DNA from: Marsupella aquatica
Lineage: Eukaryota; Plantae; Marchantiophyta
DNA length: 64,000 nucleotides
Assembly: GCA_973895155.1 (NCBI GenBank)
Contig: OZ316892.1
Location: 25,009,233-25,073,232 of the forward strand
Direction of reading: 5' to 3'
Of the stretch, positions 3,280 to 32,784 are shown one piece after another; within the stretch, counting starts at the first letter, position 1, and every line of letters begins with the position of its first letter. The notes under the pieces are model-generated. The model worked only from the letters and a program-made list of their open reading frames with translations, was not told where the DNA came from and searched no databases. A program made the position numbers and the translations under genes.

Positions 3280-3720
3280 TGTTGATTACAATAAGAGGAC
3301 TTAATTATTACTCTTGTGACCAAGTGCTTTGGTACAAAGTTGTTGAACTACCCTAGTTGTCAGCGTATCTCTCATTCGCTAACAACTTATTAATGAAGGC
3401 ATTCTCTTCAGTCAAACAACGTCATAAACTCGAGATGTGAAGAGTAGTGTTCGAATGCTTTGATAGTCGTTGGTTCTGCAAAGAGCGTTGGCCAAAAGAC
3501 TTCATCCTTACTCGTTGGAACTCGGCCTTGGTCTTTGACTCGACTACTGCTGCTGTGGCTGTGTACTTCGTCAAGGTGCCCTGCACGGAAGCGGTCAGAT
3601 GGATAGCCCGTACTAGTTGATAACGCCTGGACTCTTCGTTGATCGCGACTGTGGGATGTACCAAGGGGGGAGAGATAACATCCACATGCACGTTCGCTGA
3701 TCCTGCTGCAGGTTCAGTCC
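3280..3720 (-). mobile_element. Highly decayed Ty1/Copia pol remnant (RNase H region)
   Basis: The minus-strand translation gives 'ESRR...AAVVESKTKAEFQ' (compare D.RRSTSG...VALSTTEAEY) and, near 3310-3345, 'LCTKALGH' (compare AD.LTKAL). No LTR pair was found. Confidence 0.45.
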
Positions 3721-5185: not shown

Positions 5186-6763
5186 TTAAGTTGGTATTTC
5201 CAAACCGAGTAGTCTGGGCATGCATCGTCGTTTCCAGAGGGCCGCTTCAGTAGCAGGCTGAAGAATGACAGCAGATGGAGCACATTTTATGATGAGATTC
5301 GAATAAGAGATGGAATTGTACGCATACTTACTAGGGTTGATGCTATCATCATTTTGCTCTTTCCCTTCTATCTCTTCCTTCCACGATCTTTGATTTGCAG
5401 CCCCTTCGGGATGCTGCTGCGAGCGCACACGGATGTCGGGCAGTTTCTTTCCCGTAACGTGCTGGTAGAATCTCGTATCCCTGAATGATGGAGTTTTCGC
5501 CGGAAAGTCACCTGCTGCAAATCGGCTGAGGTCGATTTCACAGTTTTCACATTCAGTTTCTGATCGTTCCGATTTCGGCGACCTTGGAGAAGTTTCACCA
5601 GAACTCCATCCACAAACAAACCCAGCCTTAACCATAGACGATCCCAATTTCTGTTTCAAGAAATGATTGAGATATCGAATAGAATTTCTCTGGCTAGGGG
5701 ACTTAACTCCTTCGTCCTCCATCGTTTTCTCCTCCTCCACAACTCTTTTGCACCGCATCAATCTAGCCGAATTATTTACGCAACTAGGATCGAAGTAACT
5801 CAAATTCTCCTCCGAAGTGTTTCTGCCTGCCAGATCCAAATGCGGTATGTCATGGACCGGTATGTCAAAGGGTATCTGCTTGTTATGCAATTTCAAGGAG
5901 AACTCTTTTTGTAGTTTGAAAGATTCCTCTTTCTGTCGCTTGAAAGATTCTTCTTTCTGAACCTTGAAAGACTCCTCCTTTCGTAGCTTGAAGGACTCCA
6001 CGTTTTTCAGCCTAAACGACTCCTCCTTCTGCAACTTAAATGACTCTCCCTTGTGCAGCTTGAAGGACTGCCGTTTCTCAAGCATAGCTGTAGAGTAAGT
6101 CTTGCTGCTGATGTGCACAGAATGGGGAATTACTCCATCATTAATATCCATACGGGCCAAGTCCTCAGCGACCGCCTCGACCGCTTTTGCTGTCTTCACT
6201 TGCCTGTGTTTTACCTGTCCTATGCAGGACAATTGAGGTGATTGCGGCTCGCCCGTCTTCTCATTCACCCGGCTCGTGTCAACAGGAATTAAAGAGAAAA
6301 AGGTCCTTTGCGAACCGCCGGATGGATCGCAATTCGGAGACAAATGGATGTCTCTCTCAGCGACAACCGATTCTCCGAGGAAACAAGCCAGCAGAGGATG
6401 TCGAGAGTAAGCTAGGCTTCTTCGCCTGACGTTTGCCTTAAAGCCTTTCTGCGATGCTGACTGCCTCATTTTCGGACTGGCGGCTATCAAGAAATGTCTT
6501 CCGATGCTGAATGTTTCGCACACAACTCTCGCGTCGCGCCTACCACTACCCATTTGAGTGGGAAAGCTCCTAACCTCATCACGCCTCCCGCTGCCCATTT
6601 GAGTGGGGAAGCCACTGAACTCGTCACGCTTTGCACTCACCATGTGGGTTGGAAAGTTGCCCACCTCTTCGTCTGAATGAAACAAGTTGAGGTCCAGGAA
6701 GAAATGAGGATCACTTTCTGCCCTTCGGTGAAATACCCGTGAGTCCTCCGAGGACGCGTCCAT
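5186..6763 (-). CDS. Plant-specific protein of unknown function, 525 aa, single exon, resembling the At1g76070/syringolide-induced 14-1-1-like family
   Basis: Uninterrupted 525-aa ORF with EPQSPQLSCIGQVK (family motif EPxSPKxSCIGQ) and a C-terminal ALWKRR motif. It contains internal tandem peptide repeats. Confidence 0.8.
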   Translation of the reverse strand: MDASSEDSRVFHRRAESDPHFFLDLNLFHSDEEVGNFPTHMVSAKRDEFSGFPTQMGSGRRDEVRSFPTQMGSGRRDARVVCETFSIGRHFLIAASPKMRQSASQKGFKANVRRRSLAYSRHPLLACFLGESVVAERDIHLSPNCDPSGGSQRTFFSLIPVDTSRVNEKTGEPQSPQLSCIGQVKHRQVKTAKAVEAVAEDLARMDINDGVIPHSVHISSKTYSTAMLEKRQSFKLHKGESFKLQKEESFRLKNVESFKLRKEESFKVQKEESFKRQKEESFKLQKEFSLKLHNKQIPFDIPVHDIPHLDLAGRNTSEENLSYFDPSCVNNSARLMRCKRVVEEEKTMEDEGVKSPSQRNSIRYLNHFLKQKLGSSMVKAGFVCGWSSGETSPRSPKSERSETECENCEIDLSRFAAGDFPAKTPSFRDTRFYQHVTGKKLPDIRVRSQQHPEGAANQRSWKEEIEGKEQNDDSINPSKYAYNSISYSNLIIKCAPSAVILQPATEAALWKRRCMPRLLGLEIPT

Positions 6764-8308
6764 TGCTCGGATACTAAAGCCCCGAGCTTGCTCTCCTGTC
6801 TTAACCCTTTCTCTCTGCGCCTGCGAAGCAAGACTCCTCGTTTCTTCCCAGATGTCCCTCCTACGGTCTTTTCGATGTAGACATTATAGGAGACAGCAAC
6901 AGCGAAGCTGCACACTTTCCCGAGTGAAACTTATGGTATGCCGATTCTCCAACTCGTGAGGTATTCGAACCGTAAAAATGCGAACGGGCCCTCGAAGACC
7001 CCAGCAATGCTGGACACGAACTACGGCAACTGCGTCAGCTGTTGAGATTTTAAAACCATCGAGACCCAACTGGCCCTTGCTGTCAAATGGGTTTCTCTAT
7101 GTGATTCTTCCTATCATCTTTCCAATGCTTGCCATATTCTATTCCTCTCGTCACCGAAATGACAATCTAGAGCAAAGAGGAGGACAGACCGAATTTTGCT
7201 TCAGCAGACAACGAGCGACAGGTTCTATTCAATATACCGTACATTGGGGACCCTCAGTCGGGAGGACAGCAGCAGGATGACATACTAAACCACTGCCCAA
7301 TTTGCTACGCACGTACAAGCCAGTGTCACCAGCACTTTCCGAAGACAATATCGAACAGACTTTCACTGATTTCTTAGAACTAGGGACAGACAGAAAGCGA
7401 TGACCGCCCACGAGCCTGAATGACCCTTTCCTACGGAGTTCCCCCACCAGGCAAGAAACACTGCAGGATTCCCACAAGGAGAGACATGCGAGCGCATGAG
7501 CAAATGAGGTAGGACAGTGTTGACGGGAATTTTGCACCACACAAACAGAAGCGCTAGACGGATCCGGGTGAAACGGTAGAACGAAGCAGAGTGCAGCAAG
7601 TTTCTGTCAACAGAGCATTTCGTGCTGCATCTCGACGCTGACTCCCGATAGCAATGGGAAGCGAGTAAGATTGTGCAGCCAAGTTTTGTTTCGAGACGTA
7701 AGTAAACTATGCGACGTGAGAAAGCCGGCTACGTAGGAGAGGAAGCAAGCATACGGAAAGGGGACAGTATCTGAACACCGGCAGTAAGAGATAGAATTGA
7801 GTGGATTGACTGTCCGCTCACCTTCATGCCAGTGTGATCTATTATGGAGAGAAAACAGTTAGCGGGAGAACACCGCCCATGTTATTGTGCAGAGATGGAA
7901 TTGTCTACACAAGAGCAATACATCAGAGAAATACATCCAGGTACGAGAGGAGGGGGCTTTTCCTAGTGTGCCCCGACAGGAAAGGAAGAATGCGAACTGA
8001 ACCAGAGACAGGAGTCGACGACCGGATATATGGTCTCCAGAGTCCAGAAATGCAATACGAAGCACTGGCAAGGAAATTCAGGAAAGCTGCATGCTTTGCC
8101 AGCGCTGTCGGTGTCTCGCCGAGTCGAACAGCCCGGGTACGAGGCATCCTGGTGTAATTCTTGTTCTTGTACAGTACGTAGGAAGAAGGTTAGATGGGAG
8201 CTTGAGCCAGGAACAGACAGTGAATTGAACGTAATCAGACGGGCCCCACAGAACTGTACATTCCGTTTACCCGTCCTGTACTCCCTGAAGCGCTCTGCAT
8301 CCCCCTCC

Positions 8309-11953: not shown

Positions 11954-12456
11954 TCAGGGGGAAGTGCCCTCTTTGGGAAAGCACAGGTTACAAGGTTGAA
12001 GTAAGCTAGGTACACCCAGTTTCCTCTTAAACCGCCACTAGCCAAGACCAAAATGTGGTTACATAGTTTTCACCATTTTTAGTACTTTTCCCAAAATTGT
12101 GGAGCAAAGTCTTACGATAGAGGAAAAGAATGTGAAAAAGTGAGAAGTTTTGGACACTCCTCCTTTTATATGGCCAATGGTGGTTTAATCAAAACACACC
12201 CCACCCAAAGTGGAGTACACTAGATGCACTTTGGTCTCAGCCTTAGAAAACTCAACTGACAATCAGGCAACGGGAGGAGTGAGTTGGGCAGGGGACTCAA
12301 GGCTCATTATGAGCCTTCAATATTGGCTTTTGTCATGAAGTTGTGATCCATCTGAGTGGACAATGTCATTCCACTTTCTAGTCCTGAGGATTTGCTGGCA
12401 CTTGGAGTGTGGTACAAATGGGAACCCATTTTGTGCACTTGAAGTGCTCCCCCTTT

Positions 12457-13664
12457 GCATGTTTGGACTTAACAGGCCCCTTTCGCTTCTTGTGGACTTA
12501 ACAGTTCAACAAGATCATTTTAAGACTTAAAAGGGCCCCTATCACTGTGCACCATTGTGTGTTCTTCTAGGGTCCTTCTGGCACAGTTTCACAGGGAGGA
12601 ACATGCTAAGTTCATTGCAGTAGCACAAAATGGTAGGATGGAGCTAGCAAACTTTTAGCGGAGGCTTGTTTACAAAGCAGGGTTTAGGGTCTTAGAGAGT
12701 GGAGTCGGCTTCGCAGTGAGGCCCCGAGTGAGGCTGGGCAGCAATGGTCTGAGGGGCAGGGAGGACAGAAAAATGTTGATGGGACGCGGGGATGTGGAGT
12801 CGGGTGTGGAGTGATGGTCGTTGGCAGGGATTGTGGCGCCCTTAGTATTTCTATGGCACCTTGACTGACAGAAGAAAAATAGGGTGAAGTGCACTTGAAT
12901 TCACAGGACTTCAATCTTGCAGCGCCTATTCCTATATGTGAAAACTGGCGGTGGTGACGTCCAGATGGATGATTGTCTATGGGTGAAGAATGCAGGTCAT
13001 GGGTCCTTTGTCCTATAGTACAGTTTACAAAATGGTGTCATACCCTTAAGAACTATGTCTTGTCTAGGATAGAATGCTTTCCTCTCCAGCACAAGCAGTG
13101 CAGAAATCACTAGCAGCACAAACAACCTCCCTCCATTTGCACAGCACAACAAATGGACCTCAATCCATTTCCAAATTAGACATGATTGGGTTTTTTCCAA
13201 TTGAGTTCCCAATATTCAGCATTTGACCTCCCACCATATTGATTACTTAGTGTTTTTCAATTGCTCCTTGCATTCCTGTCTCCCTCCCCTTTTCAATGGA
13301 GTCCAGATCTTGGGTCAATTGAAATGCTTTCACTCTGATGTGTAAAGAGGCCCTTCTTAGTGAAGCTCTTTCCTCCCCTCCCCTCCTTCCCTCCCTAGCA
13401 CTTGCTTCCACACCAAAAAATTCCACTCCTTCAGCCACACTAGAACTTTTGGCCGAGGTAAACTGCCACTAAATGTGCAATACTGCGGGCTGCACTGTGT
13501 GGTGTTGCACATGTTCTTGTAACATGCTTAGCAAGGAGTTAGAACCCCAGAACAACACACGATGGAGCACAATGATAGGGGCCTGGTTAAGTCTTAAGAT
13601 GATCTCGCTGGACTCTTAAGTCCACAAGATGCTAGAGGGGCCAGGCTATTAAGTCCAAACTTGC
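12457..13664. mobile_element. Non-autonomous DNA transposon with long terminal inverted repeats (Mutator-like or large MITE)
   Basis: 12457-12571 (gcatgtttggacttaacaggcccc...cttgtggacttaa...aagacttaa...ggcccctatca.tgtgc.ccat.gtgtgtt) matches the reverse complement of ~13546-13664 at roughly 80% by eye. There is no coding capacity and no clear TSD. Confidence 0.7.
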
Positions 13665-14057
13665 GGCCTTTGTGTTTATAAAACTGGCCCTTTCCCCTCT
13701 TTTCGTCCCCTTCATTGGGTTGCTTTGCCTTGGAGATCATGTCTCCCGGTTCGGCGTTTTTTGCCCTTGAACACTGTGATATATATTTTCAAAGGCAAAA
13801 AGAAACCTCAACTTGAAGCCAGGCCAATAAAGTATTCGGAGTGGTCAATTGGGATTGCATCAACAGCCCGCCATCCAGTCTCACATGACACAAGAGCAAG
13901 GTCACGTCCATTGTCGACTGGGCAAGTCATATTGAAAAGAATAGGGCCATGTTAAGTCAACCTTTAAAAAGGGGGGGGGGGGGGAGGGGATATGCGAGTC
14001 TTTCTCTCCACTAGTGCCTATAGAATAATACGTTTTGCATAGTGGTGGTGGAGCCAC

Positions 14058-15649: not shown

Positions 15650-16283
15650 ATGGGCCATTATTGACCATTGAAAAATGACCTATTTTTCAACAAAGCATCG
15701 TAGATACCCAGGAAGCTCTACATGAGCCAAGTCATGGGGCCCTGTATTCCTGCCCGTATTTCCAGGACAACAGACCTAGGGGTCTAACGTAATGGTCGAC
15801 TCAAGTTTATACTTCTATTTTGCGCTGGTTGTCAACCATGGAAAATGAACCATTTTTATAACATATCACCATAGGAGCCCAAAAAAGTACACATGAGCTC
15901 GATCATGAGTTCACATATGTTCTGGCCAACAGATCCAAGGGTTTAAAGCTATGACCAACTCAAGTTTATACTTGTAGTTTTGGGTCAATTACCAATCATG
16001 GAAAAATAAATAAATTTATATTTGTAATTCAAGTTATATTTAAGTTGGAAAATTAATCCAAAATTAATTAATCATGGAAAAATAAATTAGTCCAAAATTA
16101 ATTATATTTGTAATTTAAGTTTATATTTGTAATTCTGGGTCGATTGCCAATCGTGGAAAATATACCTTTTTCTTACAAATCACCATAGAAGCCTAGGAAA
16201 ATTCATGTGAGCCCAATCATGGGCCGCATGTTTCTTGGCTAAGGGATCCAAGGATCTAAAGTCATGTTGTTTCAAATTTATAC
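15650..16283. repeat. Degenerate ~160-170-bp tandem repeat array, left part, interrupted by the P-like transposon
   Basis: Units share caagtttatactt.ta.ttt...ca(a/t)c(a/g)tggaaaa...aaatcacca(t)ag...catgagc...catgggg. The array resumes in register at 25448. Confidence 0.8.
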
Positions 16284-16879
16284 CCCGGGGTCCTCACTTA
16301 TTTCCTTCCGACCCATCACGCGCGAATAAGTATAGGGTTTTTTAATTCAATTTTGCAGAATACTTAAGAAGTTTTGTTGAAGAACTTTAGGGGTTGAGAA
16401 ATACATATTGCAACTTAGAATTATAATAGGGGTGCTAAAAACCTCACTTCTTCAAATTAAGTTGTTAGTTTAAGATAGGGCATTTTAAGAGAGGCCATAT
16501 ATGAGGAACACGTGTCAGTTTTTAATTGGTACACGTGGCACTTCCTTATGTACATTAATAGGTTGTAGGGTTTGGGGGAAAATGGGGGTTCTGTGGTGCG
16601 GTGAGACTTTGAGGGAAAATTTTGAATTATGTGGGCGGGAGGTACTGGTGGCTTGGTGGACCATGATGGGGAAGGGAGGGGTTAGGGTAGGTGGGAGGGT
16701 GGGAAGTGTCGGGGCCTTTAGGGCCATGCATTCGATCCATCCATCCATCCATTAGTTGGGCATCCAATGGTTGAGCGTTGCCTGGCTGTTTAGGGCAAAT
16801 GTGAGACCGTTGGAGAGGATTGCGCCTTGTGAACGCTACGGAGTGTGCAGGGTGAGCCGTGGACCGAGGGGCTAGGTGT

Positions 16880-18000
16880 TGCTTTGATCTTTTTCGAAGG
16901 AAATGCATGCTGAAACTAGCCGGGCTGCTGCAATCGTGATCGATGTGAGCTGGGGGTCGGGGTCTAGGCATTGCTTCGAGCATTTCTTGAAGGAAAGTTT
17001 ACACACAGACTGGGCACTACGGATCTATTGATGGAAGGTGGCAGCTTCGAGTGTAATTGAGGGACGTCGCGAGTGTGACTAAGGTCGCAGCTGAAGTTGA
17101 TCGGGACTAGATTGAAAGTGATTGGGCGACTGCGGGCACTGTGGGTGTGATCAAGTTGGCTGCTGCTGGGATTGATGTGCAAACTTCAATCACAGCCGCA
17201 ACATTGATTCAAGTTGTTTTGAAGGAATTTTTTACACACAAGCTGGGCAAGTCTGCGGTTGTGATAGAGGTGTAGCTGAAGTTGGGGCTGAGTGAAGTTG
17301 GCTGCGCGAATGTGGGTGTTGCAACTTAGTTTGATGAAGGCGCGCTGTACATGAACAAGTGAAAAATGCGCAGGGTGAGATGGGGGTCGAGGCTGTGCAC
17401 TACCGCAAACGTTTTTGAGAGGAATGCACACAGATTGGGTGTTGCAGCTGCGATTGAGACCTTGGGCAATATGTGCAATGGAGTGAGATCGGGGTGCGCT
17501 GCTGCTGTGATGTCCAAGTGAGGTTGGGGTACGCTGCTACTGCGATTGAGTTGGTAGGGGTGCATTGGAGCTGCTACTGCGATTGTTGATTGAAGTTTGG
17601 GTGATCAGTCTGTTGCTGAGTTGCGATTGAGTCACGGTTTACTGTTGCTGTGATTGATCAAGCGGAGGTCAGGGTGTGCTATTGCGCTGCGTTGCTTGCA
17701 AATCCGCATCAAATCAAGATTGAGTGGAGGTCGGGGTGTGCTGCTGTATTGCGCTGCATTGCTGGCTGTGCTCAAGTGAAGGTCGAGTGAAGATTGAGTG
17801 AGTTTCTGTTGCTGTGATTGAGTCGAGGTGGGGTGATACAAGCTTCGCTGTGTTGCTGGCTGCAAACAAGTTCATAGAAGGTGTGGTTGAGTGGTTTGCT
17901 GGTGCTGCAATTGAGTGGAGGTGGGCTGATTTGAGCTACGCTGATCAAGCTCCGCCCTGAAGTCCAAGTGCAAGTAAGCTGCCTGATCAAGCTCTGCTCT
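16880..18000. repeat. G/T-rich degenerate repeats in the 5' region of the transposon
   Basis: Recurrent tttgaaggaa...cacaca.a(c/t)tggg, gggggtcg(g/a)gg and gctgctactgcgattg motifs. The short minus-strand ORFs here are low-complexity artefacts. Confidence 0.55.
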
Positions 18001-19347
18001 AGGCTCGCCTGGGTGACTGTGTTGTGTCATGCTTTGACTGCATCTGGTGGAGTTCTCACTCACTTTCCTACTACTTTAATTTGATCTTTAGACTACATTG
18101 TAGTCAATGCTTGGTTTCTTTGCTAGATAGTGCTGTAATCTTTGTGTCTCGTTTGCTCTCAAGTTCCCGATTGACTTTGCGTGCAGGAAGCCCTATGTAC
18201 TGTTCTTTTGTTTAGAAGCCAGCTATTTGATGCAACTATTCTAGTGATTTTGGCATGGCCAAAGGAGGACTGGCCTGAATGCCCACAATAAGTATTATAG
18301 CTTAGGGTGGGCGTAGTTCTTCTTCCACCCTCTGGAGTACTGTATGGGGATTCTATTTGCACATGGTTCTTTCTGCATGGGACTGACTATATCATTCTTC
18401 CCAGAGTTGCTTTTGACTGTGAATAGCTAATCATTCATAGAACAATGCAGTGTTTAGAGCTCTCAAATAATCCATGATATATGTACCTCCCCCTCTTTTG
18501 CAAGCACCCTGACTACATATTCAAGTGAAAAGAAATAGTACTTTACCATGTTCAACTATGCATTATTCGACTGAACTAGAAATAGACAACTGAAGGAAGA
18601 ATCTAATAAGAATTAGATTAGTTGCTGAAAATAAGTCAAGAATCAAAAGCTTTCATTGACATTCAGTTGGCAATGTGTTGTGCAGCTTGTTCAAGAAGAG
18701 GACAGTGCTTGGTCTAGGGTCTGTGTAATTTTAGGACCTGGAATCAGTTCTTGCCAAGGTACGTTAAGTTGTGGCTCTTGTGTTGACAATGTTATTTCTT
18801 GGTTTATGCTCAGTTCTCCATGACTCTGCAATTGTTTACTGTCTGTACAACTAAGCTCTTTTGTACTCCTTTGTTGTGTCTGGTCTTAGTTATTGGATGT
18901 TTTATGGTATACTTCATTTGCCTCTCTTAAGTCCTTAGTTTATGCATTTAGTCTCCTATTTGCTCTCTACCAGGGAATGAATTTCCATTGGGAATGAACC
19001 TGGCCTCGGTTACACTCCTCGAGCTCAGTCACCTACATTTCTGATCAGTTTAAAATATGTTCTGAACTCTTCTTGCAGGATGGATTGGTTTCCTGATTGG
19101 TTTAGAGTGTAGGGGAAGTATTTCAGAAGCTTCAGCAATATACGTTCAAATCCAAAAATTGTGTACAGAGCAGACAATCAAGGTAACTAATTATGCTTAT
19201 CTTTAAGATGCTCAATTTGTAGTTGCACCAATAACTATGAATGTGCTGTTCAATGCTGAATGGATATCGAGGCAGGGGTTGAAATTGGATGCTAAGTGAA
19301 TGGAGCATTTGTTGTGCACAGGTAAAATCATCATCAGACAAGCTGAG

Positions 19348-20013
19348 ATGGCTTTAGATGTACCACGGATTGACATATTTTCCCATAAGGAGCACCACCG
19401 CATGGATCCCCCTTGTTGTTTCTTCTGTGATGAGACAGATGATGTGGTATTTTGTGATGGTCCTTGTAGTAGACATTTTCACTTCGTTGGTGGAGAAGGT
19501 ATGCAGGGGGCCATTTGCACTCCTGTCACATTGCCTGAAAACAATGACTGGAGGGCACCCTGGGTTTGTCAACTGTGTGCTGCCGGTAGAGCTAGATGCT
19601 TTGCTTGTGGACTCATTGGCAGATTTGAAAATCCCACAACACAAGAATCTCTTGTGCTCCACTGTGCCCACCCTCATTGCTTTTCTCATTACCACCCTGG
19701 CTGCCTTAGGGTGCTACTTATGGTTGGGGCACTGCCTCATAGGTCTCATCCAGCAAGTCCTAAAAACCTAATGTGCCCAAGGCATTTTTGTGACTACTGT
19801 AAAGTCTACAAGGATGGGATTAAAAACTTTGTACAGTGTCGCAGATGCCCTCGCAGTTGGTGTCATGATGAGACACCTGGGGGGGTGAAACACCTTAGGA
19901 GGTGTGTGAAGGGTAGGGACCATTGGGATGTGGAAGGGTGGCATTTTATTTATTGTCACAGGCATGCAATACCTGAGGGGGAATTGGTTCCTGTGCAGCC
20001 TCATACCTCTTAG
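19348..20013 (+). CDS. Multi-PHD zinc-finger protein (NSD/EDM2-type tandem PHD and variant PHD), transposon-borne
   Basis: Open ORF (track 19300-20013). The likely start is MALDVP at 19348, because a candidate splice acceptor ttgtgcacag ends at 19320. Motifs: CFFC..DDVVFCDGPCSRHFH..C...W.CQLC, then RCFAC...LHCAHPHCFSHYHPGC, then CPRHFCDYC...VQCRRCPRSWC...IYCHRH, the Cys/His spacing of NSD-family PHD arrays. Confidence 0.85.
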   Translation: MALDVPRIDIFSHKEHHRMDPPCCFFCDETDDVVFCDGPCSRHFHFVGGEGMQGAICTPVTLPENNDWRAPWVCQLCAAGRARCFACGLIGRFENPTTQESLVLHCAHPHCFSHYHPGCLRVLLMVGALPHRSHPASPKNLMCPRHFCDYCKVYKDGIKNFVQCRRCPRSWCHDETPGGVKHLRRCVKGRDHWDVEGWHFIYCHRHAIPEGELVPVQPHTS

Positions 20014-20288
20014 AGGCTGTGAGAAATATTGCTAGAATTTCTTTGCTAGAGGCCTTATAACATGAGTAATCACATGTGAACAATGATAACAAGATTTTGT
20101 TTTTGTTGGTCTCCAAATTTGGAGATCAAAAGCTTTTTTGAACTATTTTGGAGTAATCTCTAATACTCTTTGTATTGTTTTGTTCACTATGCTATATGGC
20201 AGGTTCAGTCTATATGGGAGGTTCTTTACGTGACTGTGATTGTATTTAGAACCCTTGATCACTCTCTAACTTGAACAAATTGATTGAA

Positions 20289-23200
20289 ATGGCTGCCCAG
20301 TTTGTAAAATTTACTTCACAAAAAAAGGGATGTGGTCATTGATGGGAAAGATGAAGAACCTATAGCTGTGTTGGCCTTCAAAGAAGGACAAACTTTAGCT
20401 GATTTTCGAAGTTGAATTCCTGATTTGGTTGATTTTGATTTTGATTTCTGGGATTATAGACTTCCTGGTCGCATGAAGGTCAAGAGTGAGAAAATGACTG
20501 AGTTGTCTGAATTGGATGGGAAAGTTGCTGTCATTGAACAAATAGGATCCTTGCCGACTGGTAGAACACAGTTTCCATCAGTATCTCCTGCTGTCACCCA
20601 ATCGGTTGCAGTGGACTCTTCACAAGGTGAACAGCTTCAAGAAGCTCCCCCTATGAGAGCTTCTTTTGAGTCTCTTCTCATGTCTCAGGCGGCTGTCAAA
20701 GTCTGGAATGATGAATATATAAGACTAGAGAAGTGGATTCACAAGAATGGTTATAAAGCTCATAATTGGAGAATTCGAACTTGGGATGAAGGACAGGATG
20801 TGAGAGGCCATCTGGAGTGTCTTGAATGTAGAGTGATCTATGGGAGGGCAAACAATTCACAAGATAAGAAGTCAGTTGCTAATTTGTTCAGCAATTTTAA
20901 GACCAAGCACCTTGCCTTTGCTAAACACAAAGACAATTACTGCAGGAGAATGGGCATTGCTATGACTGGGGTCAAGCCCTCAGATCTTGCACAAAAGCCT
21001 GAGTTTGATTATGAGGGGGCCATAGCAACTAGCCTAGAGATAGTCCAGACTCTGAATGTTGAGTGTGGAGGTGATGATGAGCTATTTCATGTGCCCCCTG
21101 TGCCTGGTTTAGCCAATAATGCAAACAAGTGGTTCCTGTATAAGGTCAGGTGTAAGGTTTGTGGGGCAATCATGGATCTGGTTTGTAAGAAGGGGACTTT
21201 GGATCACAACCTGAGGACACACTTGGTCAGTCGGGGTCACCTGGATGTAGTTGAAGCCAGAGAGAATACTGCTGAACTTGCATTGAGATCTGGAAAGAGG
21301 GGCAGACCAAGGAAGCCAGATGAGAGGGATCAACATCCTTCCCAAAATTCAATTTTAAAATTCTTCAAGGAGGATGCTTCCAATGCAAGCAGCAGCTCTG
21401 GCACAGGTGGGTCTGTAGACATCGATATGGGCCTAAGTTTGCTCTGTTGGGGAATATGGGATGAATATGTAGAGTGGAAGAATGTGAAGTATGTTGTGAA
21501 GGGTATCTTGCAGGATCAGCATGGAGGACATGTATGGAATGTGAATGCCACAGTCTCTGTTGATGTCTACAATCCTAATACAAATTCTATTGTACATATA
21601 GAAGGACTATTTAGGCATAAACAGTGTTGTAGGCTGTCCTTGTATGGTGGAGGGTTTCTGAACTTAACTTGCAGTAGATGTCATGCTATAACACTAGAAG
21701 ATGACTTTCGTGGGCGGGTGCACAGGGAAGCGGAGGCTTTAGCAAAGAGAGGGGAAAGAAGCACAGAGGGTGGTTTGAATGCACGTTACTTGACACGTCC
21801 AGAGTTGCCCACATAGATGCATGGTCTCAATGTCAAAAGAAGAAAAGAGGGATGGTTGTTGGCATTACAAAACTCAGAAAGTGTGTGCCCTTAGTACTAG
21901 GAAGAGAAAATTGCAAGAACTGTTAGGAGTAGCTGCAGACAGAAAAGATTTGAGACTTTTCCTAAGGAGTATAGTCAATGGACATAGGAATGGTGCATTT
22001 GGTGGAAAAGAAGGTCTGTGGGATTTTCTGAAAGATGTAGGTAGAAATTTGGAGAGAAGTGCAAGGGGGTTTCGTTACAGTCAGAAAACAAAAGCCATAG
22101 CTCAGGCTATGTTTCAATATGGGGGCCGGTAGGTGGCCCATGTTTTTGCAAGGAACTTAGCTGGGCCAAGCCTGAAGACACTAAAACGAGATAGAGCAAA
22201 ATTTGTTCAATTTTGTGCTGGAATTAGGCCAGAAACATTCAAGGAGGTGGCTTGAATTCTGTCTGCTGCAAAGGAGATATTGGGAATTGAAGGAGATGTA
22301 CCTGTCATGCTTGCAGAGGATGAAACCAGGATCAAGGAAAGCCCAAGGTATGTTTGCATATTATAGCACATAATGATGCAATTGAAGGTGAAGATTATTT
22401 GTGATGCATAGTTTTACCAATTCTTTGAAATTGACTTGGTTTTCATTGGGCTCTCTGCAGGTGGGAGGCCAAATATGACACTTTGATTGGTTTTTGTGGC
22501 CATAAGGATGGGCATACCTGTGAATTTGGATTAGAAATTCTTGTAGGTGATGGTGAGGATGGCTATAACAAGATTGTAAATACATTTGAGGATTTTAACA
22601 AAGGAATGTATGCTAGAGTTGTCATTGTGAATCCATTGCATGTTGGAATGCCAAAGTTGGCCTTCTGTGCTATATCAACATGTAACAAGTTCAAGGCAGA
22701 ATGGGTTAGAGAGCACTGGAAGCAATTAAAAGAATCTTGGGATCTACATTGCAGAGACTCTGTAGGTCCTTTGCTTGGGCATGCTAGTGATGGTGATGCA
22801 AGGCGCAGGAAATTGATGTTAGAAGATTACAGAGGAGCTAATGGGTCTTACCCTAGATTTTCTGTAGGGTGGGAAGGATGGCCTTACTCAGTTGCCATAT
22901 TGCCTAATGGGGACCTGTATGGTTTTGGTGATCAAGACCAGCCTCACAATGGGAAAAAACTTATTAACCCACTAGATCGAGTGTCCTCAATAATGGCACT
23001 TGGAGACCAACATGCTTCCCTGTTTCATGTCTGTAATGTGTACAATAACTATCCAATCCATCAACATGGATTGAATTGGGATGATGTGAACAGATTGGAC
23101 CGTCAAAACTGGGCTGGTCCCCAAAGGATAGCATCAAAAAAGGTGCGTGACTGTTTAGCAGATTTGCATGGAAGAATTGATATGTTGCATGAACGATCCA

Positions 23201-24868
23201 AGTTTGGGGACAGAGTTGTATCTGCAGATCTGTGCAGACTATATTGACATTTTCTACTCCCAGAGACATGACCTGAGGACTAGAGTGAAGCTGGCAGGTA
23301 AAGTTTCTTGGTTCTTTCGATTGTGGAGGTTGTGATTGAGGTATGGTGATCATGCTGTAGGTGGAAATGTTGCTTCACATACAGAGAGAAATATGATATC
23401 AATCCAAGCTTTTCATGATGTTAACATGTCATGTCAGTTTATTGTATTGCTTATATGTGCATTTCGTGATAAGTTTTCTCACTTGTGTATTCCATTTTAT
23501 GAGTTAGGTTCTGATTGTTGTGAGATATTTTTCAGCAAAGTAGGTGGAATGAGTGGCCACAAGAGGAATTATGATTTTGGCTCCTTGCTGGACAGTGCTG
23601 TAGGGTTAAATCATCTTGCTGGATTAGAATGTGGACCAGAGGGCTTGAAAATAGCTCGATCACATAAAAAGCAAGATCATGTATGGGCCAAGCTTCATCC
23701 TTTACTTGAAGGTGAAGATGCACCTAATCTTTTTGATTACTCTGAAGTGCAAACTAATGAGTTGGTGGTTGCAGCCTTGAAAGAAGGTTTTGAAGAAGCA
23801 AGAGAGTTTCTTAGAAGGTTACAAATGTCTCCTAGAAGTGATCTGCCAGCAGCAAGAAAGCGATGGTGGACTCACCCTTGGGATGTGGAAGTTCAGACAT
23901 GGCCAAATTCAGCTATAATAGCAGAGGCAGTTATTGTTGACGATTCTGAAGAGCATGTAGAGCACAGATCTCCAATTGGACCTCGTCCAGAAGGAGATTT
24001 TCATGAATTTGAAGACCCTGAGGAAGATCTAAATCGAATTGATGCATGGTTGGCAGATGAGCTAACCATTCCTGATGATGTTTTGCAGGATGGGGTTGAG
24101 TTAGACATACCAGAAACTCATTCTGTGGAGGTAGATACTTTGGGGCATGAGGTTCGTCATGTGCTGTCTTCTGTTGTAGCTGAGTTTACACAGTCTTTTC
24201 AGAGCCCTCTACAGGAAAAGAAGAAGGTTTTGCCTACAGTTACATATGAGGGTAGAACAATTTACAAATCAACTTTGGTGAGTCAATTAGTGGGCAACCC
24301 TCATTTGTCTAAAGATAGGCTGACAAGAGTGAAGCAAGTGGCATACTATAATCTTGGTAAGAGGAAACAATGTGATCCGAATACTGTGACTTGTTTTGTT
24401 GATGTTGGGAGTGATTGTGGAGTAGCATTTGAAAGTGCTAATGATGCAGGCCCTTCTACAAGATCAAAAAAGGGGAAAGGTAAGGGAAGAGGTAACTCTA
24501 GGATCCAAGAACCAGTAGTGTAAGTAAAGAAAGAATTTTGGCTTGGTCGGATTATGATGATGAGACAAAAAGTTAAGGGACAATGGACTAGAGTGAGATC
24601 TGCTATTGATTTGCTTGACAGACCAACACCTCCTCATGGACACGTAGGGAGTATTTGTCAGTTCTTGTTCAATTGGTATAAGCCAACAAGCTCAAGCAAA
24701 GTTGAATTCACTTATGATACAACTGATTTACAATGGATTGATATAGAAATGGTGATGACTAATGTTACTCTAACCATGAAACAAGGGATTGGATTAGTGT
24801 ATGTGTTAGATCGAGTTGATAAACAAGCTTTGGATACTTATTTGGAGACCATGTCTAGAGTTGAATGA
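20289..24868 (+). pseudogene. Decayed P-element/THAP9-like transposase with one intron (22348-22460)
   Basis: The reconstructed frame gives GPSLKTLKR (compare LPSxRTL), catalytic D in MLAEDET (GAT 22319-22321), ASDGD (22789), DQPHNGKKLINPL (DxxH), DRQNWAGPQRI (compare DKMNV..A.QL) and LGSDCCEIFFS (E at 22522+1000=23522; compare QDxLExFF). The GT-AG intron joins ...ESPR|WEAKYDTLIGFCG in frame. In-frame stops lie at 20413, 22130, 22253, 23333 and 24521, with frameshifts near 20325, 21810 and 23200. Confidence 0.88.
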
Positions 24869-24940
24869 TTTTCATGCATCAATAGTCATGGTAGTGGTTT
24901 TAGTATGTATAGGGGATAGGTTAGGGGAATAGGCTAGGGG

Positions 24941-25001
24941 GTGGCAGATTTGGATACTTAAGCTTCTTGCTCAATCAGGGGTTCAATTCCCCTCTGCCAC
25001 A
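24941..25001 (+). ncRNA. tRNA-like (mascRNA/t-element-like) structure downstream of the transposase
   Basis: Perfect 7-bp acceptor stem GTGGCAG/CTGCCAC (24941-24947/24994-25000) abutting a 5-bp T-stem AGGGG/CCCCT with a canonical TTCAATT T-loop. There is a GG-containing reduced D region and a short stem-loop TTAAGC-TTCTT-GCTCAA. Expression is not shown. Confidence 0.55.
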
Positions 25002-25447
25002 CTCACCATTCAGATTCTTCACTCAATTCCTTTTTGGTGTACCTACCTTTCACATCAGACAAGCACAACAGATTGCAATATGAATAACTCATACTGTATA
25101 TTGTTGAAGCTTCTACTAGAATTGGTATTCTTAGTGGAAGCATCAACACTATATACTATCAGTTTTCCATGAGATATGGATGCCTAAGGAGCACATTAGG
25201 GTTCAAATAAGCTTGACGAAGACCCAAATAAGGTGCGCATTTGAATGAACTTTTCTTTTCTTACTAAGGGGTGTTTAATTCACAACAAAACTTTACTTAA
25301 CTATTTTTAGGGGTCAAAATGTTAGGATTTGGAATTCTTATAAGTATGATAGGGAAGGGGAAAAAAAAATTACTTAATAAGTTAGGGGTGCAAGGGTCCA
25401 AAACGTCGAGCGTGATATGGGGGTCTCTGTATACTGAGGCCCCCGTG

Positions 25448-25610
25448 ATTTATACTTGTAGTTCTAGACCCATTGTCGATCGTGGGAAAATGAATTATTT
25501 TCCAACAAATCATCGTAGGGACCCGGGAAGCTTCACATGAGCCTCATGATGGGGCCATATATTTTTTGGCCATTGGACCTATGGATCTAAAGTTATGGTC
25601 AATTCAAACT
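25448..25610. repeat. Continuation of the ~160-bp tandem array to the right of the transposon
   Basis: atttatacttgtagttct...tcgtgggaaaatgaattattttccaacaaatcatcgtagg...cacatgagcc matches the units at 15802, 15961 and 16145. Confidence 0.8.
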
Positions 25611-28600
25611 CAACAAGAGTCAACCTGCCTCAAGGGACGCGTGTGGACCGAGGAGGTTGTCTGGACCAGAGTGGGTTATTAGGCATTAAGTTCTAGGAAT
25701 TAACCTTCTAGATGAGGCCAAATTGCAAAGGTTTTTTACTGTTGTCATTTTGATTAGGTCTTGGGAGGTTAACTAAGTGTATATTTTTTGGTATCACGTA
25801 CAATTCTAACCTAATACAAATAGACCTATTTCATAAAAAAATATATTCCAAGAATTTTTCATTTTTAATACTAAGAACTTGTTTTATAAAAGATATATAT
25901 TAGAGAATATTCTATAAATATGAGCTTATAATATCTCTTTTTGCCTCCTACGCTTTTTTAAGTTAGATTTTGGATCGCACGTGGTTCCTATGATTTTTGA
26001 TAGTCTACCCCCCAAGAGCTAAGTGGCAGGGCCCATGGACCTTTGAAGGGGGCGCCGGGGGGGGGGGGCAAAGATAAGGAACCAAAGCTGGTTTGGGGAT
26101 CATGACATGTCTCCAAAATCATATATGATGGGGGTAATTCTCTTGAGTTTGAGCTTGAGCTGATCATAATCAACAAAGATACATTGTTTCTAGTTTTAAA
26201 GTTGAAACATGCATAACTCAACAACCAAATCTCCGTTGAAGGAGTACTTGGGCTCATTGGAAATATAATAAAGAAAAGTAACTCATGATGCTCTTGAATT
26301 GTGAATTGGATAGTTTGGTTTTGAGGCTTACAATGAAGGCAATTCCTCTTGTTGTATTTGGTTTGCATGGGAAAGTAGAACCAAACAGACTATGGGGGCT
26401 GCCATTGAGATGTAAGCCCAGATGAATGCATAGTGAGAGCTTGAGCAGAACATGGTTTTGTTGAGATTGAGGTGGCCAAGGGTTAGGAATTGAGTGGTCT
26501 TGACGTGTTACTACAAGCTTGTGACAAACTGAACTTTGGGGCATGGGCATGTCGTGGAGGCAGGGCGATCAACTGCTGACAAGTACAAAGTGAGGAAATG
26601 TGGGTGGCACCCGAAAGAGAGTCTATTCTGGATGAACAATTGATGCTAATCTTAGCTTTTGCTTATAGCAAGCCCGTGTGGGCCTGATAGACTCTATTTG
26701 CTAACGTACTTACTAGTGATTGGTGAGCATGATGCAATGCTCTTGGAAGTTTTAAGATCACTTATTGGTTGGTGGGTTGCTTGTGTAGATAGTAGGGACC
26801 GTTGAACGACCATCATGGTCAAGAGGGCGAGTGAAACTTTACATGAGAGTGGTCGCAAATGACAAAGAGTATAGTCAAAGAATGTTTGCCACAATGTTCT
26901 GTTTTAGTGGAAGGTTTGATTTGTTTCAAGGTTTAGAGCCAAATTTGGACGTGCACGTGGTGAGAGATCCACCACTACTTTCAACAAAATTAATGTTAGT
27001 AACCCTAATTCTTACAAAGTAGCACTAATTATGGTGAACAACATAGTTCACCTGGTGGGAAGTGCTCCAATGCCCAACCTACTCAGGGTGTTCACTAAAC
27101 TTATTATAAGCATTGTACTCAATTGGGGTATAACACCCATGCCTGAACTACTTGGAGCATCCTTCACAAACGTGAAGCATTCATTGATTTAAAACATTTG
27201 ACCATTTTTGTGCTCATAAAAAATGGAGGAATTGATCTAAAAAAATTCAAACTTTGTGAGGTAATCGATAGAATATAGTCATTAGCAAAAGTGAAGAGTC
27301 CATCCAGAAAAGGTTACTATTTTTTTGTGTACATTGACTGATGACTGTATCCTGTCCACGGGCATGGGTAGAACAAACCCTTGGTTAATCCAGACTAATA
27401 TTCCTTATTTTTAAGATCTTATGATGGGAGACATGTTTGAGAAGATCACACCACTTGCGAAGCTCTTTGGATAAGGATAAGGAGTTCTCACCATAAGGCA
27501 TGTTTCATTTTCTGTCTTGTACTTTTCCATTAATGATTTTCATTGTAGACCTATCTCGAGACCTATTCGCAAAGGTCATGATTGGCTTAGTGCAAATATC
27601 TACAAAATTTTTCAAAAAAGAACCTATCCGCCCAACTTGCTGAACCAAGTATGACTGGTGACTATTTTTTGACAAAAAGTGACACAACATGATAAAAGCT
27701 CAGCACAAATGGAAAGATATGCATGAAAACTTCAACAAACGGATAAGAAGTATGAGGTTACGTATAGCCCTAGTTTCCTTGGAGGTCAAATATTAATTCT
27801 TCAGTAGTCATACTATTGTGACTTCAGGAAGTTATTGGGTGAGTGGGAAAGGGACCTTAAATGTCAATCGTCACTTGCCCATGGTGCTAGCATTGGGGCT
27901 AACATTGTGGAATTTAATATTGGTTATCACAATAGGATTAGCCCAATAAGCATGTGACGCATGATTATTATGGGGGCATGTGGAGCCAAGGAAATGTTGG
28001 AGCAAGACCTAGGCAGCAGTGTTGCGATAGTCAGGCCATAGCACCATGCAGTGCTGCTAAACATTCCTCAGGATGGCGAGCAAGGGAGGGATGCAAGGTT
28101 GCAGCGTGGGCAAAGTGAGGCAGTGTTACTTTCTCCCACCCATTTTGCTCCTCTCCCTCCCCACACGGGCATTGGGCAGGGAGGCAGATCTTCATGCGGA
28201 GACCAAGGCACGGCCTGAGCAGGCTGTGTACGCTGGGCCAGACAAGCCAGCGTGCAGGATGGCAAGCGCAATGTGCAACGACAGGGTGAGAGGAGTCAAG
28301 TGGGTAGGCTTTAGGAGGGGTCTGCTGGTGATCCAATGGGGCAGGAGAAAACAGGCACATCACCTAACGGCTTCCTGCCCACAATTCCATTTGTAAACAG
28401 AATATGGAGGAGTTCTCTCAAAATTGCATATTATAGTGATTGATGTATACTGATGTATAATTATGTTGATGTCTCTTTGAATAGTTTTTAATTTTTTTTT
28501 AAAAATAAAGGGGAAATCTGTGAAACCCCATAGGGATCAGTGAGTCACAACTTTTGAACCCAAGATCTATGAATCACTACTCAAGTGAGCTATCACATAG

Positions 28601-28849
28601 CCATAGCCCTCTAGGCAACTCTCTTTGAATAGTTTTACGTAACACTTCTTTTTATAGTGAGATCAAATATTTGCCATACTGTAAGGTGGGATACTTTCTA
28701 CATGATTGGCTAGTGGCCCTCATGGCAACTAAAAGGGGTATAAAATGACTACTACTGAGAGGGGTATTATAAAATTCAAAGAAAAATATAAAAGACTACA
28801 TCCCTATCCTGCACATTTCAAATTTAATACATGTCACTTGAGAAACTAG

Positions 28850-30700
28850 TAAATGATTATCTATGATACATAAGTACACTGCCATCACTAAAGGGCTCCC
28901 ATGGACTGAATGGACCATGCAACCACACCTGACGGTGATACCTTTTGGACTTTCCCTCATTGAAACCTTTTCTTTCCCAAACTTTCCAACAACAAAGTTT
29001 GACCTTGAATACCTCGTTCAATATGCAACTGAATTGGCCCTTCTTAGGCTCATTGGAAGCATCTTGAAGAGATCTTTAGAGCCAGACTAATACCTCTAGT
29101 TTTCTTAAAGAATTGAGAGATTTTTGTAGCAGCTAACTTTGACATTCACTATCGCCCTCAACACCCAATGGAATGTGATTTTCTTTGGGTTCAATCAAAA
29201 TGACTTCAGAGTATCTTTCCAGTGACCTAATCTTGTCCAATTTCATTGAGAATTGAGAAACCAACAAATTCCCAAAGATGTCCCTTGGGGTGTCTTGCCA
29301 CATTTCACCCATGGCTATAATATTTACTGTGTGTATTTTCACTGAAGTCCATCCGGGTTTCAGAGTCTATGGTATCACCTGTCGTAGCATTTTGGCAAAC
29401 TTGGAGGTCCGTGTGGCTAAAGGAAAACACCATCAGGGGTCTTTGCATTTGCTTTTCAATTTATGAGTAGAAATACCTTTTCCCGGTAAGGAAATAATGT
29501 CAAGAATATCCGTGCAGCAAGTTCATCGATTCATTCACCCATTTTCAAGAATATTCTCGTTGCATTGGATCCTGGCCGATCCCATTTCAGATGGAAGCCT
29601 GGCACAGATTTGTTAAAAAGCTCTCACGCTGGTAAAGGACTCCACTATTGATACTATTGATGGCATAGGACAGTCCTGGCTCATTGCAGACTTGCTGGCA
29701 CTAACTTGTCAAGGGCATCACTGTACAGTCCCATGACAAATCGCTCTGGCTTTGACCGCTTGGGTGGTCTCCAGTGTCACTTTACCTGACCTCTCTGACT
29801 ATGGAGTGGACGTCTCTGACTATGGAGTGGAGAGTAGGGACTTTGGGGCCTGGGATGGGGTGAAGAATATCAAAAAGTCACTTGCGACCCAAACTTCAAA
29901 GTGCACACACTTGGCAGGGACAAAGGGGGTTTGATTAAAGCATCTCAACTACCGTAGTGCTCCTTCATAATGTTGGGCGATTACTAGAGGCCCAATTTAC
30001 TGTTCTATGCTCATCTAGAGTAAAGCCTCTAGACACTGACTATGTAAAGTAGCTTAAATTGAGGGTGTGAGTAGAAAATGGGGGATTGGAGGCAGTTTGT
30101 GTATCTGAACTGGTACAATGGGCTATGATGTCTTCTCCACTATTTATGTTTAAAGATAGGGCACTCAGGCTAGTATTCGGGTTGATCCTCATCCCATCTC
30201 CCTTAAAGTTCATACCGGGAGCATTATTGTATGCATCTAAAAGGGTGCCATTACAAGACCTTGGGGGGAAATTACACTTTTTTTGGGTCCATAAGATCTG
30301 ATTGGGGTCATACATTTGGAAGAAACTTTTGTTCACTTTACAAAAAGTTGAGGGCACTTTCAACCTAACTTGTTATCAATCCTAGATGGAATGTAATGGA
30401 GCCCAAGTTTTGTGCATGTGGGACACTATATTTAGTGTATGCAATGGCCCTCCACGTTGTGACCCTCCAGGTTGGAGACTCTGGGGAAACAACTTCCCAA
30501 GTGCCCCCAAAGTCTTGTAAAGTACTCCTAAGTACAATTTATTGGTGCTAATCATTTGATAGATGTAAATTTATGGCTGCTGCCTTGGGACTCATCCAGT
30601 CAGCGCTTTAGGTACACAACAACAATGGTTGGCCTGGGGAAATAATCATACACGTAGTGCCTTGAGAGGAACTGCATAGGAGTAGCAACCCCAAGGTTAA
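28850..30700 (-). mobile_element. Decayed LINE (L1-like) reverse transcriptase/zf-RVT remnant
   Basis: Minus-strand fragments 'KLFP...TWRAIAY.LN' (~30420-30500; compare LIPK...WRPISLLN) and 'LEVLVWL.RSLQDA' (~29050-29100; compare K.K.FLWR..HDALP). Many stops and frameshifts. Confidence 0.45.
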
Positions 30701-31911
30701 TTGATGATTAGAGTTTGTTGCAGCTGACGCTATTTTGGAGGCCCCCTTAAACGCTCAGAAAGGTAACTGCTAAAATTAGCTGGAGTAAGACTGTAAAGGC
30801 ATCAGCTCTATTAGTGAATAAAGGATGCATTGTCGACGTGGTGATGTATAAGTCATAAGTAGTGGATAGGATAATGGATGTTGGACGTGGCCTCCTTAGA
30901 AGTCCAGAAAATTCGGAACGCAACAACTTAAATACAAACAAACAACTTTTCCGGAGTCCTTGCTAATTAATGTAAAAGTTACCGAGATTAAGTAAACAAC
31001 TACCAAACTTGGGAGTTGTGACGACTGCTCTTGTATTATTATCGTGTTGGGTGATTATTTCTTAACAAAGTTCGTACTTAGAAGAATGATCTCTTTGCCT
31101 TTGGCCATGTGGTGATTAGTTTCGCGCAAGCAGTGTCATCAAGCCAAACTACCCTACGTTGTGGACCCAAGCTAATTTAGGCCACTAAGTCATGACTTTT
31201 AAGTACGCCTTAAACACAGAAGATGGGAATGATTACAAAAGACTGTGTTTCGTTGAATAATAAAACACAATGATGAGACAGCCAAGCGCCACTTAATTAG
31301 ATGGGAAAGATAACGCGATTTCATTAAATAATGAGTTGATTGACCTAGGATTCCTATCAGACCCTAAGATAGTAAGATATGCTAGTTTACACTCATCGCT
31401 CAGTGACTTCTGAATATGGACTGACATGAGTGCACGTTTTTTTTGCAGGATAAGGAATGGGGGACGGTACAATGGTCTTCCTTTGACCCAAAGTTTTTTT
31501 AAAGGAACTTTGGGCCCAAAGTTGATTGCAGTGTGACAGGTATTGGAAAGAAACCTTTCAAGAAAGCCCATTATCTTTTCAGTAAAAACTATGAATATAT
31601 TCATTCATTGATGGATTATTAAAATACAATTTATTCACTATTCCTCACTTCTGTGACAGGGGCACTCTAATCATAGTGCCATGATCATAGTCCACTAAAA
31701 GACAAAAATTGAAACATGTATTAGATGAGCATCCCGTATATCCAGTGATGATCATTGGCTTATACCTATGGTTTGGGTGGTCAGAGCTAGTGATGAGAAG
31801 CAAATCCTCTAGTTTAAGTAAGATTTCCTGACAGCAACTTAGTGTAGAGCGTTAAAGAAACCACACTGACCTATTCGTCTGGCCTACAGTAGGTTCTGTT
31901 TTTTGTTGGGG

Positions 31912-31930
31912 GAGAGAGAGAGAGAGAGAG
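31912..31930. repeat. (GA)n microsatellite
   Basis: Read directly from the sequence. Confidence 0.85.
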
Positions 31931-32784
31931 CCAGTGGGGGAAGTTCACTATTGATGGGTAGGGCCTAGTTGTGAACTCCCCTTTTTATTCATGGAGCTTT
32001 ACCCATTCTGTTTGGTGCTTACTACGGATTTTGTTCTTTTGCCATTGGTGGGGACTCTGACCCTTTCTGGCAGTTTTGCTTTCTTAGGGTTTCTTTCTGG
32101 GTTGTCACTTTTAGTGGATCTCCTGCCTTTAGGATCTTGTCTCCAGGTTTGGCCCTCTTTATCCTATGGCAGTGTGATTTATTCCCACTTGTGAGTTGCA
32201 GCTTTGTGTGTGTTTTTGACAAATAGAGATTACTTTGACATGAAAAGAACGTTAAAGTAATGATAGGACTGACGAATGTAATCTGGCCCATGAACCAACG
32301 TATGGAATGTATGAAATCTGGAAGAAGGCACTCGAGTTTCAGTAAGGTGGTCAAGTTGGGTGAGTCATGGGTTACTTTGACTCAAGTTGGGGGAGAGTTG
32401 AGTAGAATTAGAGACCCCTTCACATCGGTGTGAGTGACATAGAGTGAACTGTGACCACAGTGACAATGAACCACACAGCACAAGTACTTTGGGTTTGCCA
32501 ACCAATAAATCCCCAACTGTGATGGTTCCCAAAATTTGAGTTTAATTGTAACTATAGGCTCATAAATTCACATATTTTTTAGTTTTCACAACGTGCTAGA
32601 GGAGTAGATAAGCTATACTTTCATCAAAGTGACAATGAATTTTTGACCATTTTGGTTGAATTATTCATCATGAATGTGGAGGGGTAAATTCTATCAGATT
32701 AATTTTCATTGTGTTATTATGAAATATAGGGGCTTTTGTTATTTTAGGTCTCCTCCTTCTCTACTTGCCTTGCAAGTTAGAAAT

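Follow-up and report, generated by a model that had tools for sequence, protein, structure and literature searches.

An EDM2-like triple-PHD gene under purifying selection within a P-like DNA transposon of the liverwort Marsupella aquatica

A 64,000-nucleotide stretch of the Marsupella aquatica genome (hereafter the window) contains an open reading frame for three PHD fingers that lies immediately upstream of a decayed transposase gene. This arrangement raises the question of whether a DNA transposon has acquired a chromatin reader as a gene of its own, and if so from where, and to what effect. There is precedent for accessory genes such as MURB of MuDR, VANC of VANDAL elements and the fungal TET/JBP genes, which are reported to be patchy among related elements (PMC12973397, PMC6446971, PMC12730594). 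Additionally, capture of histone readers by mobile elements has been described, with roles in targeting or evasion proposed (bioRxiv 10.1101/2021.11.30.470311; PMC6446971). The element presented here resembles the MURB, VANC and TET/JBP systems in having a separate second ORF, but its accessory protein is a reader-only PHD protein of EDM2-like origin that is devoid of an enzyme or DNA-binding domain. It likewise resembles chromovirus chromodomains, the Rehavkus PHD and PHD/Chromo-TE fusions in that an element has captured a reader module; those, however, are one-protein fusions while this PHD is a stand-alone gene. Since reader capture and accessory genes are already known, the comparison suggests that what is new is a separate EDM2-derived reader gene in a P-like transposon. 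A survey of literature titles and abstract openings returned no EDM2-derived stand-alone transposon gene and no P-like elements in liverworts; Repbase may already have an entry for the family. An activity is known for few of the accessory proteins encoded by plant transposons; the present one is small and foldable, can be traced to a host chromatin pathway and shows measurable selection.

The element spans 9,164 bp and is bounded by an 8-bp target site duplication (TSD) and short imperfect terminal inverted repeats (TIRs), with the individual features collected in Table 1. A comparable TSD and TIR pair occurred in 4 of 200 shuffles, and the loose ends of 31 contigs from sequencing run X2 fall exactly on the first base of the element. 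A degenerate host tandem repeat with a unit of about 157 bp (15655-16283 and 25448-25610) runs on across the insertion site; when the flanks are joined, 90 of 132 bases align across the site to the neighbouring repeat unit, and repeat families D1, D2, D4 and D5 straddle the element. This tandem-repeat location describes a single insertion only, and the 5' flanks of element copies are diverse (agreement 0.35), so one shared target sequence is not indicated. Two other inverted matches were rejected as element ends, each being without a TSD: an 18/19 match between 19125-19143 and 25096-25114, and a 32-bp match between 18278 and 29306.

Table 1. Coordinates of the transposon and its features in the window
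Feature	Position	Strand	Evidence
Left TSD copy, 8 bp	16276..16283	.	Identical 8-mer at both ends
Whole P-like DNA transposon, 9,164 bp, inside degenerate host tandem repeat	16284..25447	+	TSD, TIR, repeat continuity
Left TIR, short, imperfect, 12/15 match to right end	16284..16298	+	Terminal alignment; loose contig ends; similar start in the relative L006
Predicted 5' non-coding introns 18759-19078 and 19183-19321 around short exon 19079-19182	18759..19321	+	Splice consensus only
Triple-PHD ORF, stand-alone, EDM2-like origin, purifying selection	19348..20013	+	Pfam, profile search, model, tree, dN/dS
275-bp spacer, predicted splice acceptor 20201-20202	20014..20288	+	Splice motif; contigs crossing from ORF end
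Transposase pseudogene, about 1,490 codons, one intron 22348-22460	20289..24868	+	Alignment of relatives, model of P0005
C-terminal BAH-like domain, approximate limits, cut by stop at 24521	24390..24865	+	P0005 residues 617-772
tRNA-like hairpin, element 3' region	24938..25004	+	Fold z -3.5; 0/200 shuffles fold equally well
Right TIR	25433..25447	-	Terminal alignment to left end
Right TSD copy, 8 bp	25448..25455	.	Identical 8-mer at both ends

The PHD ORF lies inside these ends and its stop codon is 275 bp 5' of the transposase ATG on the same strand, a layout that the original prediction had described correctly. Judged from splice motifs only, the predicted donor at 19182 could serve acceptors ahead of either gene. 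Contig depth in the bin holding the 5' end of the element (16284-16600) is far above that of the element interior, a sign that short non-autonomous derivatives are numerous. The tRNA-like hairpin, which has a B-box-like loop and lies about 70 bp 3' of the transposase stop, also exhibits very high contig depth (at 24960); ARAGORN detected no tRNA there and Rfam matches were weak only. The hairpin may be the remains of a SINE or a signal for 3' processing.

The PHD frame is open over all 221 codons. Pfam detects neither SET, PWWP nor methyltransferase domains in it, which agrees with the original description of an open ORF of about 220 residues lacking SET and methyltransferase domains, and no enzyme, RNA-binding or DNA-binding domain is found by Pfam either. 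PHD_NSD (PF22908) is matched at E=8.8e-8, which passes the Pfam cut-off; PHD-1st_NSD (E=0.007) and PHDvar_NSD (E=0.019) fall under their cut-offs and yet are arranged in NSD order. The ORF had also been called Cys/His-complete, and this holds in the alignment for 22 of the 24 canonical zinc ligands but not for finger 3, where a His has become Cys (C172), a Cys is lost (E175) and a new His182 is present, changes that are shared by 3 of 3 family members aligned. An AlphaFold model based on a 54-row alignment has a mean pLDDT of 78, with residues 171-190 in finger 3 less certain (57-65), and structurally it most resembles the tandem PHD domains of NSD proteins (Foldseek E 1.6e-4; Z about 6). Among solved structures the ORF as a single-sequence query gave no match, and a profile query built from it reached NSD2/3. 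Finger 1 retains the acidic residues flanking the first Cys pair, the Cys-Asp strand and the Trp, which we take to be the signature of readers of the histone H3 N-terminus. The Trp of the H3K4me3 cage is absent from this finger, and in the alignment its conserved Gly-Gly is replaced by Thr-Asp in the subfamily of the window.

The ORF is a multi-copy sequence, present repeatedly in runs X2, X3, X5 and X6 and not confined to the window copy, as befits transposon cargo. A 701-bp stretch over the ORF is covered by 153 contigs in X2, 361 in X3, 14 in X5 and 16 in X6. Its depth is of the same order as that of the transposase in four of four runs: 3,259 versus 3,242-6,234 in X1; 623 versus 376-807 in X2, where unique flanks have a depth of 14-19 (31 for one contig); 21,673 versus 19,913-39,611 in X3; and 55 versus 11-403 in X5. 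Summed contig depth is not a copy number, so these values are taken as an indication only. Contigs in X2 and X3 bridge the ORF end and the spacer (joints at 20015-20067 and 20086-20173), and others cross from the spacer into the transposase. Among the contigs listed none covers both the ORF and the transposase ATG in another copy; the evidence for linkage in other copies is similarity of depth and contig overlap. X3 is near-exact over the window flanks, so run labels A and B may stand for a single species or for closely related ones; in X5 (label C) the flanks are mostly missing. Frameshifts in the ORF occur at three sites and in minor copies only, as expected of dead insertions. By eye, loose ends at 19421 in X3 and X6 spell residues like those of P0001; they are matched by loose ends at 19378-19384 in X2, X3 and X6, and spikes in depth span 19378-19425. 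The PHD ORF thus appears to have a second subfamily, strongly diverged and at high depth, in the same runs.

The PHD ORF is under purifying selection and is not neutral cargo. A gap-free 508-bp contig from X6 (depth 166) differs from the window ORF at 39 positions. The 36 of these differences that are listed fall on codon positions 1, 2 and 3 in the numbers 9, 1 and 26, and comprise 24 synonymous and 12 nonsynonymous changes. This corresponds to a dN/dS of 0.12-0.17, or of 0.15-0.22 if the three unlisted differences are counted as nonsynonymous, with p <= 1.1e-5 under every transition bias tried. Synonymous changes also predominate among 40 listed variants of the ORF (27 versus 13, out of 98 rows), while 24 transposase variants, a selected subset of more than 1,600 rows, divide into 14 synonymous and 10 nonsynonymous. 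More distant family members were also compared. P0001 (Logan) and P0057 (JGI), both stand-alone, open and beginning at the same Met-Ala, are 55-57% identical to the ORF and retain 23 of 23 Cys/His positions checked. When neutral evolution was simulated to 40% divergence (n=20,000), the frame stayed open in 2.7% of cases and all 23 Cys/His were retained in none. An open frame by itself is weak evidence of selection, as the original prediction had cautioned, because the lesion rate of the transposase leads one to expect only about 1.3 lesions in a stretch of this length and none with a probability of about 0.26-0.30.

A profile search of 1.84 billion representatives addressed where the module came from, giving 203 matches at E <= 0.001, the best 150 of which are considered here. 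Next after the PHD family itself are liverwort proteins of 280-770 residues with a triple PHD at the C-terminal end, the nearest host proteins being from Riccia, Marchantia and Calypogeia. Longer proteins rank after this liverwort set; they were named EDM2-type from their architecture, with DNMT1-RFD found in 8 of 33 scanned. A motif read as the ELP domain occurs in 66 of the best 150 of 203 matches, and a SET motif in none of these 150. Identity of the ORF to the nearest named host proteins among those aligned is about 30-31%. The family shares with the liverwort clade an Asp-Pro-Pro before finger 1 and an Ala-Trp in finger 3, and a 27-row tree joins it to six liverwort paralogues with support of 100/99. 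At 2.6-3.4 changes per site the family has a very long stem, the liverwort grouping is supported at 83/86 when long-branched short proteins are added, and an AU test does not reject the alternative grouping of the family with P0064/P0068 (p 0.21); a 108-row tree was a quick tree only. From these alignments and trees a liverwort-type EDM2-like host gene is likely to be the donor. The earlier designation NSD/EDM2-like is therefore narrowed, with tree and residues supporting an EDM2-like origin in the liverwort paralogue clade and NSD being only a distant structural relative.

The triple atypical PHD module is common to Arabidopsis EDM2 and the liverwort EDM2-like proteins (Mp1g03210 and Mp4g03050 of Marchantia polymorpha, R1sor_003797 of Riccia sorocarpa, CAM6087769.1 of Calypogeia fissa), and likeness between EDM2 and NSD1 has itself been reported (PMC3776765). 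The liverwort paralogues carry the diagnostic residues and, as in the ORF, end in a PHD region with no methyltransferase-like domain behind it. Since that domain is already absent from the host paralogues, its loss at capture need not be assumed. We know of no function for these paralogues. The ORF differs from its host counterparts in being only about 30% identical, lacking the N-terminal region, having a single exon and a remodelled finger 3, and being transposon-borne. It has the triple atypical PHD of EDM2 but neither the ELP methyltransferase-like domain nor the long N- and C-terminal regions, and is thus derived from the EDM2 family without being a member of it. The ligand loss in finger 3 and the very long stem imply that EDM2 specificity may not carry over.

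The transposase partner has accumulated 6 stops and 3 frameshifts over about 4.47 kb, and its N-terminus contains zinc-finger-like motifs as read by eye. Its fold was modelled through the relative P0005, which is 58-71% identical to it. The P0005 model matches Drosophila P transposase (6p5a) with Z 20.2 and an rmsd of 4.3 over 296 aligned residues (Foldseek E 5e-4), with Hermes the next-best DDE transposase at Z 6.3, and on this model the protein has a DDE RNase-H core with the P-element fold. The match also covers the region of the GTP-binding insertion, with PF21788 present on 15% of the members of one Atlas cluster; PF21787/PF21788 occur on 15-25% of members among Atlas neighbours of the transposase. 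Drosophila P and THAP9 share with it this catalytic fold, the two Pfam families seen on its Atlas neighbours and the 8-bp TSD, a feature reported with others for the P element (PMC7776569) and present in both the window element and the related element L006. The TIRs (12/15 in the window element, 26/26 in L006) fall short of the 31 bp in Drosophila P. Pfam matches no family on the segment 20416-21813 or on the full-length relatives P0015, P0022 and P0026; as no THAP domain is found by Pfam, the element is classed as P-like only and not as canonical P / THAP9. It further differs from these in the length of its transposase (about 1,500 residues) with a BAH-like C-terminus, in short imperfect TIRs that start with C and a G-run, in its second gene and in its plant host.

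Residues 617-772 of P0005 match many BAH domains with a middling Z of 5.5-7.1, including those of DIM2, DNMT1, EBS and ORC1; the same tail gave no usable Atlas match and no Pfam match. The structural model makes it possible that this tail is a chromatin reader built into the transposase. It is also present in transposase relatives that are without the PHD gene. The element leads to a family of P-like transposases, seen in liverworts and other lineages and ending in a BAH-like tail, of which we found no description in the literature. Most named relatives belong to Riccia and Calypogeia, two more being EukProt records, and a search of viral contigs with the transposase gave 22 matches of which none was confirmed. 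Distant members were seen in other metagenomes (L021, L027-L030, L032, L044-L045, L048, L051-L059), with L029 and L030 named as marine, and the family may be broad in eukaryotes.

The PHD gene does not extend across this family. It is absent from 60 of 60 more distant metagenome transposase loci, ten of which have a near-complete 5' end with more than 1.2 kb upstream, some of these being duplicates. They include L006:192-6287, a complete relative of 6,096 bp with perfect 26-bp TIRs and an 8-bp TSD. The expectation that the ORF recurs in other copies and relatives is thus borne out for copies of this element and, for the ORF itself, by the open P0001 and P0057, but not for distant loci, which makes the gene a lineage-specific add-on that is dispensable for transposition in the superfamily. 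The existence of related elements with and without the gene allows a direct test of the effect of a captured reader on insertion or on escape from silencing, and L006 provides a natural control element lacking it. No PHD is fused to the transposase in 52 transposase relatives, and no transposase is fused to PHD in the best 150 PHD matches as compared with five transposases. A metagenome scan with the PHD alignment returned 77 pattern matches, none confirmed. A second group of stand-alone triple-PHD proteins of 220-231 residues, 27-35% identical and sharing an N-terminal Phe/Glu motif, was also seen; its members P0167, P0180, P0183, P0190 and P0229-P0232 have a shortened middle finger and derive from unannotated sources only. 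By their sequences these proteins are candidates for further transposon-borne readers and may represent the same capture more widely in seed-free plants.

Under two readings the gene would be non-functional, or its selection that of a former host gene. The ORF might be a neutral captured host fragment in the style of Pack elements, open by chance, as the unremarkable open frame and the absence of the gene from every distant relative would allow. This account is already largely refuted by a dN/dS of 0.12-0.22 between element subfamilies, where a value near 1 would be expected of such a fragment, by ligands retained at 55-57% identity and by the closest aligned host gene being only about 31% identical; we regard it as very improbable. 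Alternatively, the selection signal could have been acquired in a host gene family that the element captured only recently. P0001, P0057 and the second group are known from sequence records without a gene neighbourhood, which leaves room for such a history, but every short relative was obtained from Logan, JGI or the sequencing runs and none from an annotated genome, and the selected differences separate high-depth variants whose depth tracks the transposase. This account is improbable, though less so than the neutral one, and non-functional and host-gene explanations remain improbable even when taken jointly.

The ORF is a second gene of a multi-copy P-like transposon. We tentatively propose, at rather less than an even chance, that it encodes a captured EDM2-like reader that binds the transposase and steers it to particular chromatin. 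A liverwort-type EDM2-like host gene, as its inferred clade of origin suggests, was probably captured by a P-like element, and transcription of the PHD gene would start at a promoter belonging to the element and give a spliced message of its own. The protein would then act as a stand-alone reader of the histone H3 tail through finger 1; reading of the unmethylated-K4 or K9-methyl type would be more likely since finger 1 lacks the Trp of the H3K4me3 cage. In a complex with the transposase it could tether the latter to that chromatin. Having no catalytic or DNA-binding part, the PHD protein could favour its own element mainly via the transposase, which is the sole sequence-specific protein of the element and bears the BAH-like tail. 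Binding of MURB to MURA offers a reported precedent for an accessory protein that acts on its transposase (PMC12973397).

Other uses of the protein deserve weighing against this targeting role. It may instead bind H3K9me on element copies and aid full-length transcription or processing, or could, as a variant of this, promote transcripts that reach the transposase by splicing or reading through beyond the PHD exon. The evidence for selection and for EDM2-like origin applies equally here, and EDM2 is reported to bind H3K9me2 (PMC9910501, PMC5364540, PMC7529245) and to promote full-length transcripts, including at genes with heterochromatic introns (PMC9910501, PMC7529245). Additionally, both ORFs are strongly depleted of CpG (observed/expected 0.16 for PHD and 0.18 for transposase versus 0.39-0.51 in the flanks), which fits past methylation, and the predicted donor shared by the two genes would suit the variant. 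However, the protein is without the other parts of EDM2 and, by Pfam, without an RNA- or DNA-binding domain, so that it has no evident means of choosing its own copies, and the splice model derives from splice consensus only. VANC, by comparison, is sequence-specific. We consider this anti-silencing or self-expression role unlikely, if a serious contender, and on our analysis targeting via the transposase would be favoured over it. Somewhat less likely again is that the protein is a non-histone adaptor or decoy which binds a host protein of chromatin or silencing, the one with which the donor paralogue interacts, or otherwise assists the transposase. PHD fingers also bind non-histone proteins, as in the case of MLL4 PHD and ASXL2, and the long stem branch, the remodelled finger 3 and the family-specific His182 are in keeping with this. 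Against it, no part is better conserved among all the short relatives than finger 1, which bears the presumed signature of H3 binding. A broader reading, on balance doubtful, is that a plant P-like transposon lineage converted the reader module of EDM2, a host system that normally permits gene expression across heterochromatin, into a separate subunit; this subunit and the BAH-like tail of the transposase would together make up a BAH-PHD reader encoded by the transposon and serving to target insertions or to sustain expression.

The window contains several features outside the element. High-copy repeat edges lie at 25883-26213 and near 28604, with many loose ends at 25883, 25967 and 28604. The segment 12449-13975 holds two nested inverted-repeat pairs that resemble MITE ends (12475-12576 with 13541-13642, and 12449-12481 with 13943-13975), and one repeat is present in two copies of opposite orientation, 81-90% identical, at 32782-33956 and 50395-51211. 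There are also two long host ORFs on the minus strand, one of 565 codons with short internal repeats at 5186-6883 and one at 53349-54956 that by eye encodes an RCC1-repeat-like protein.
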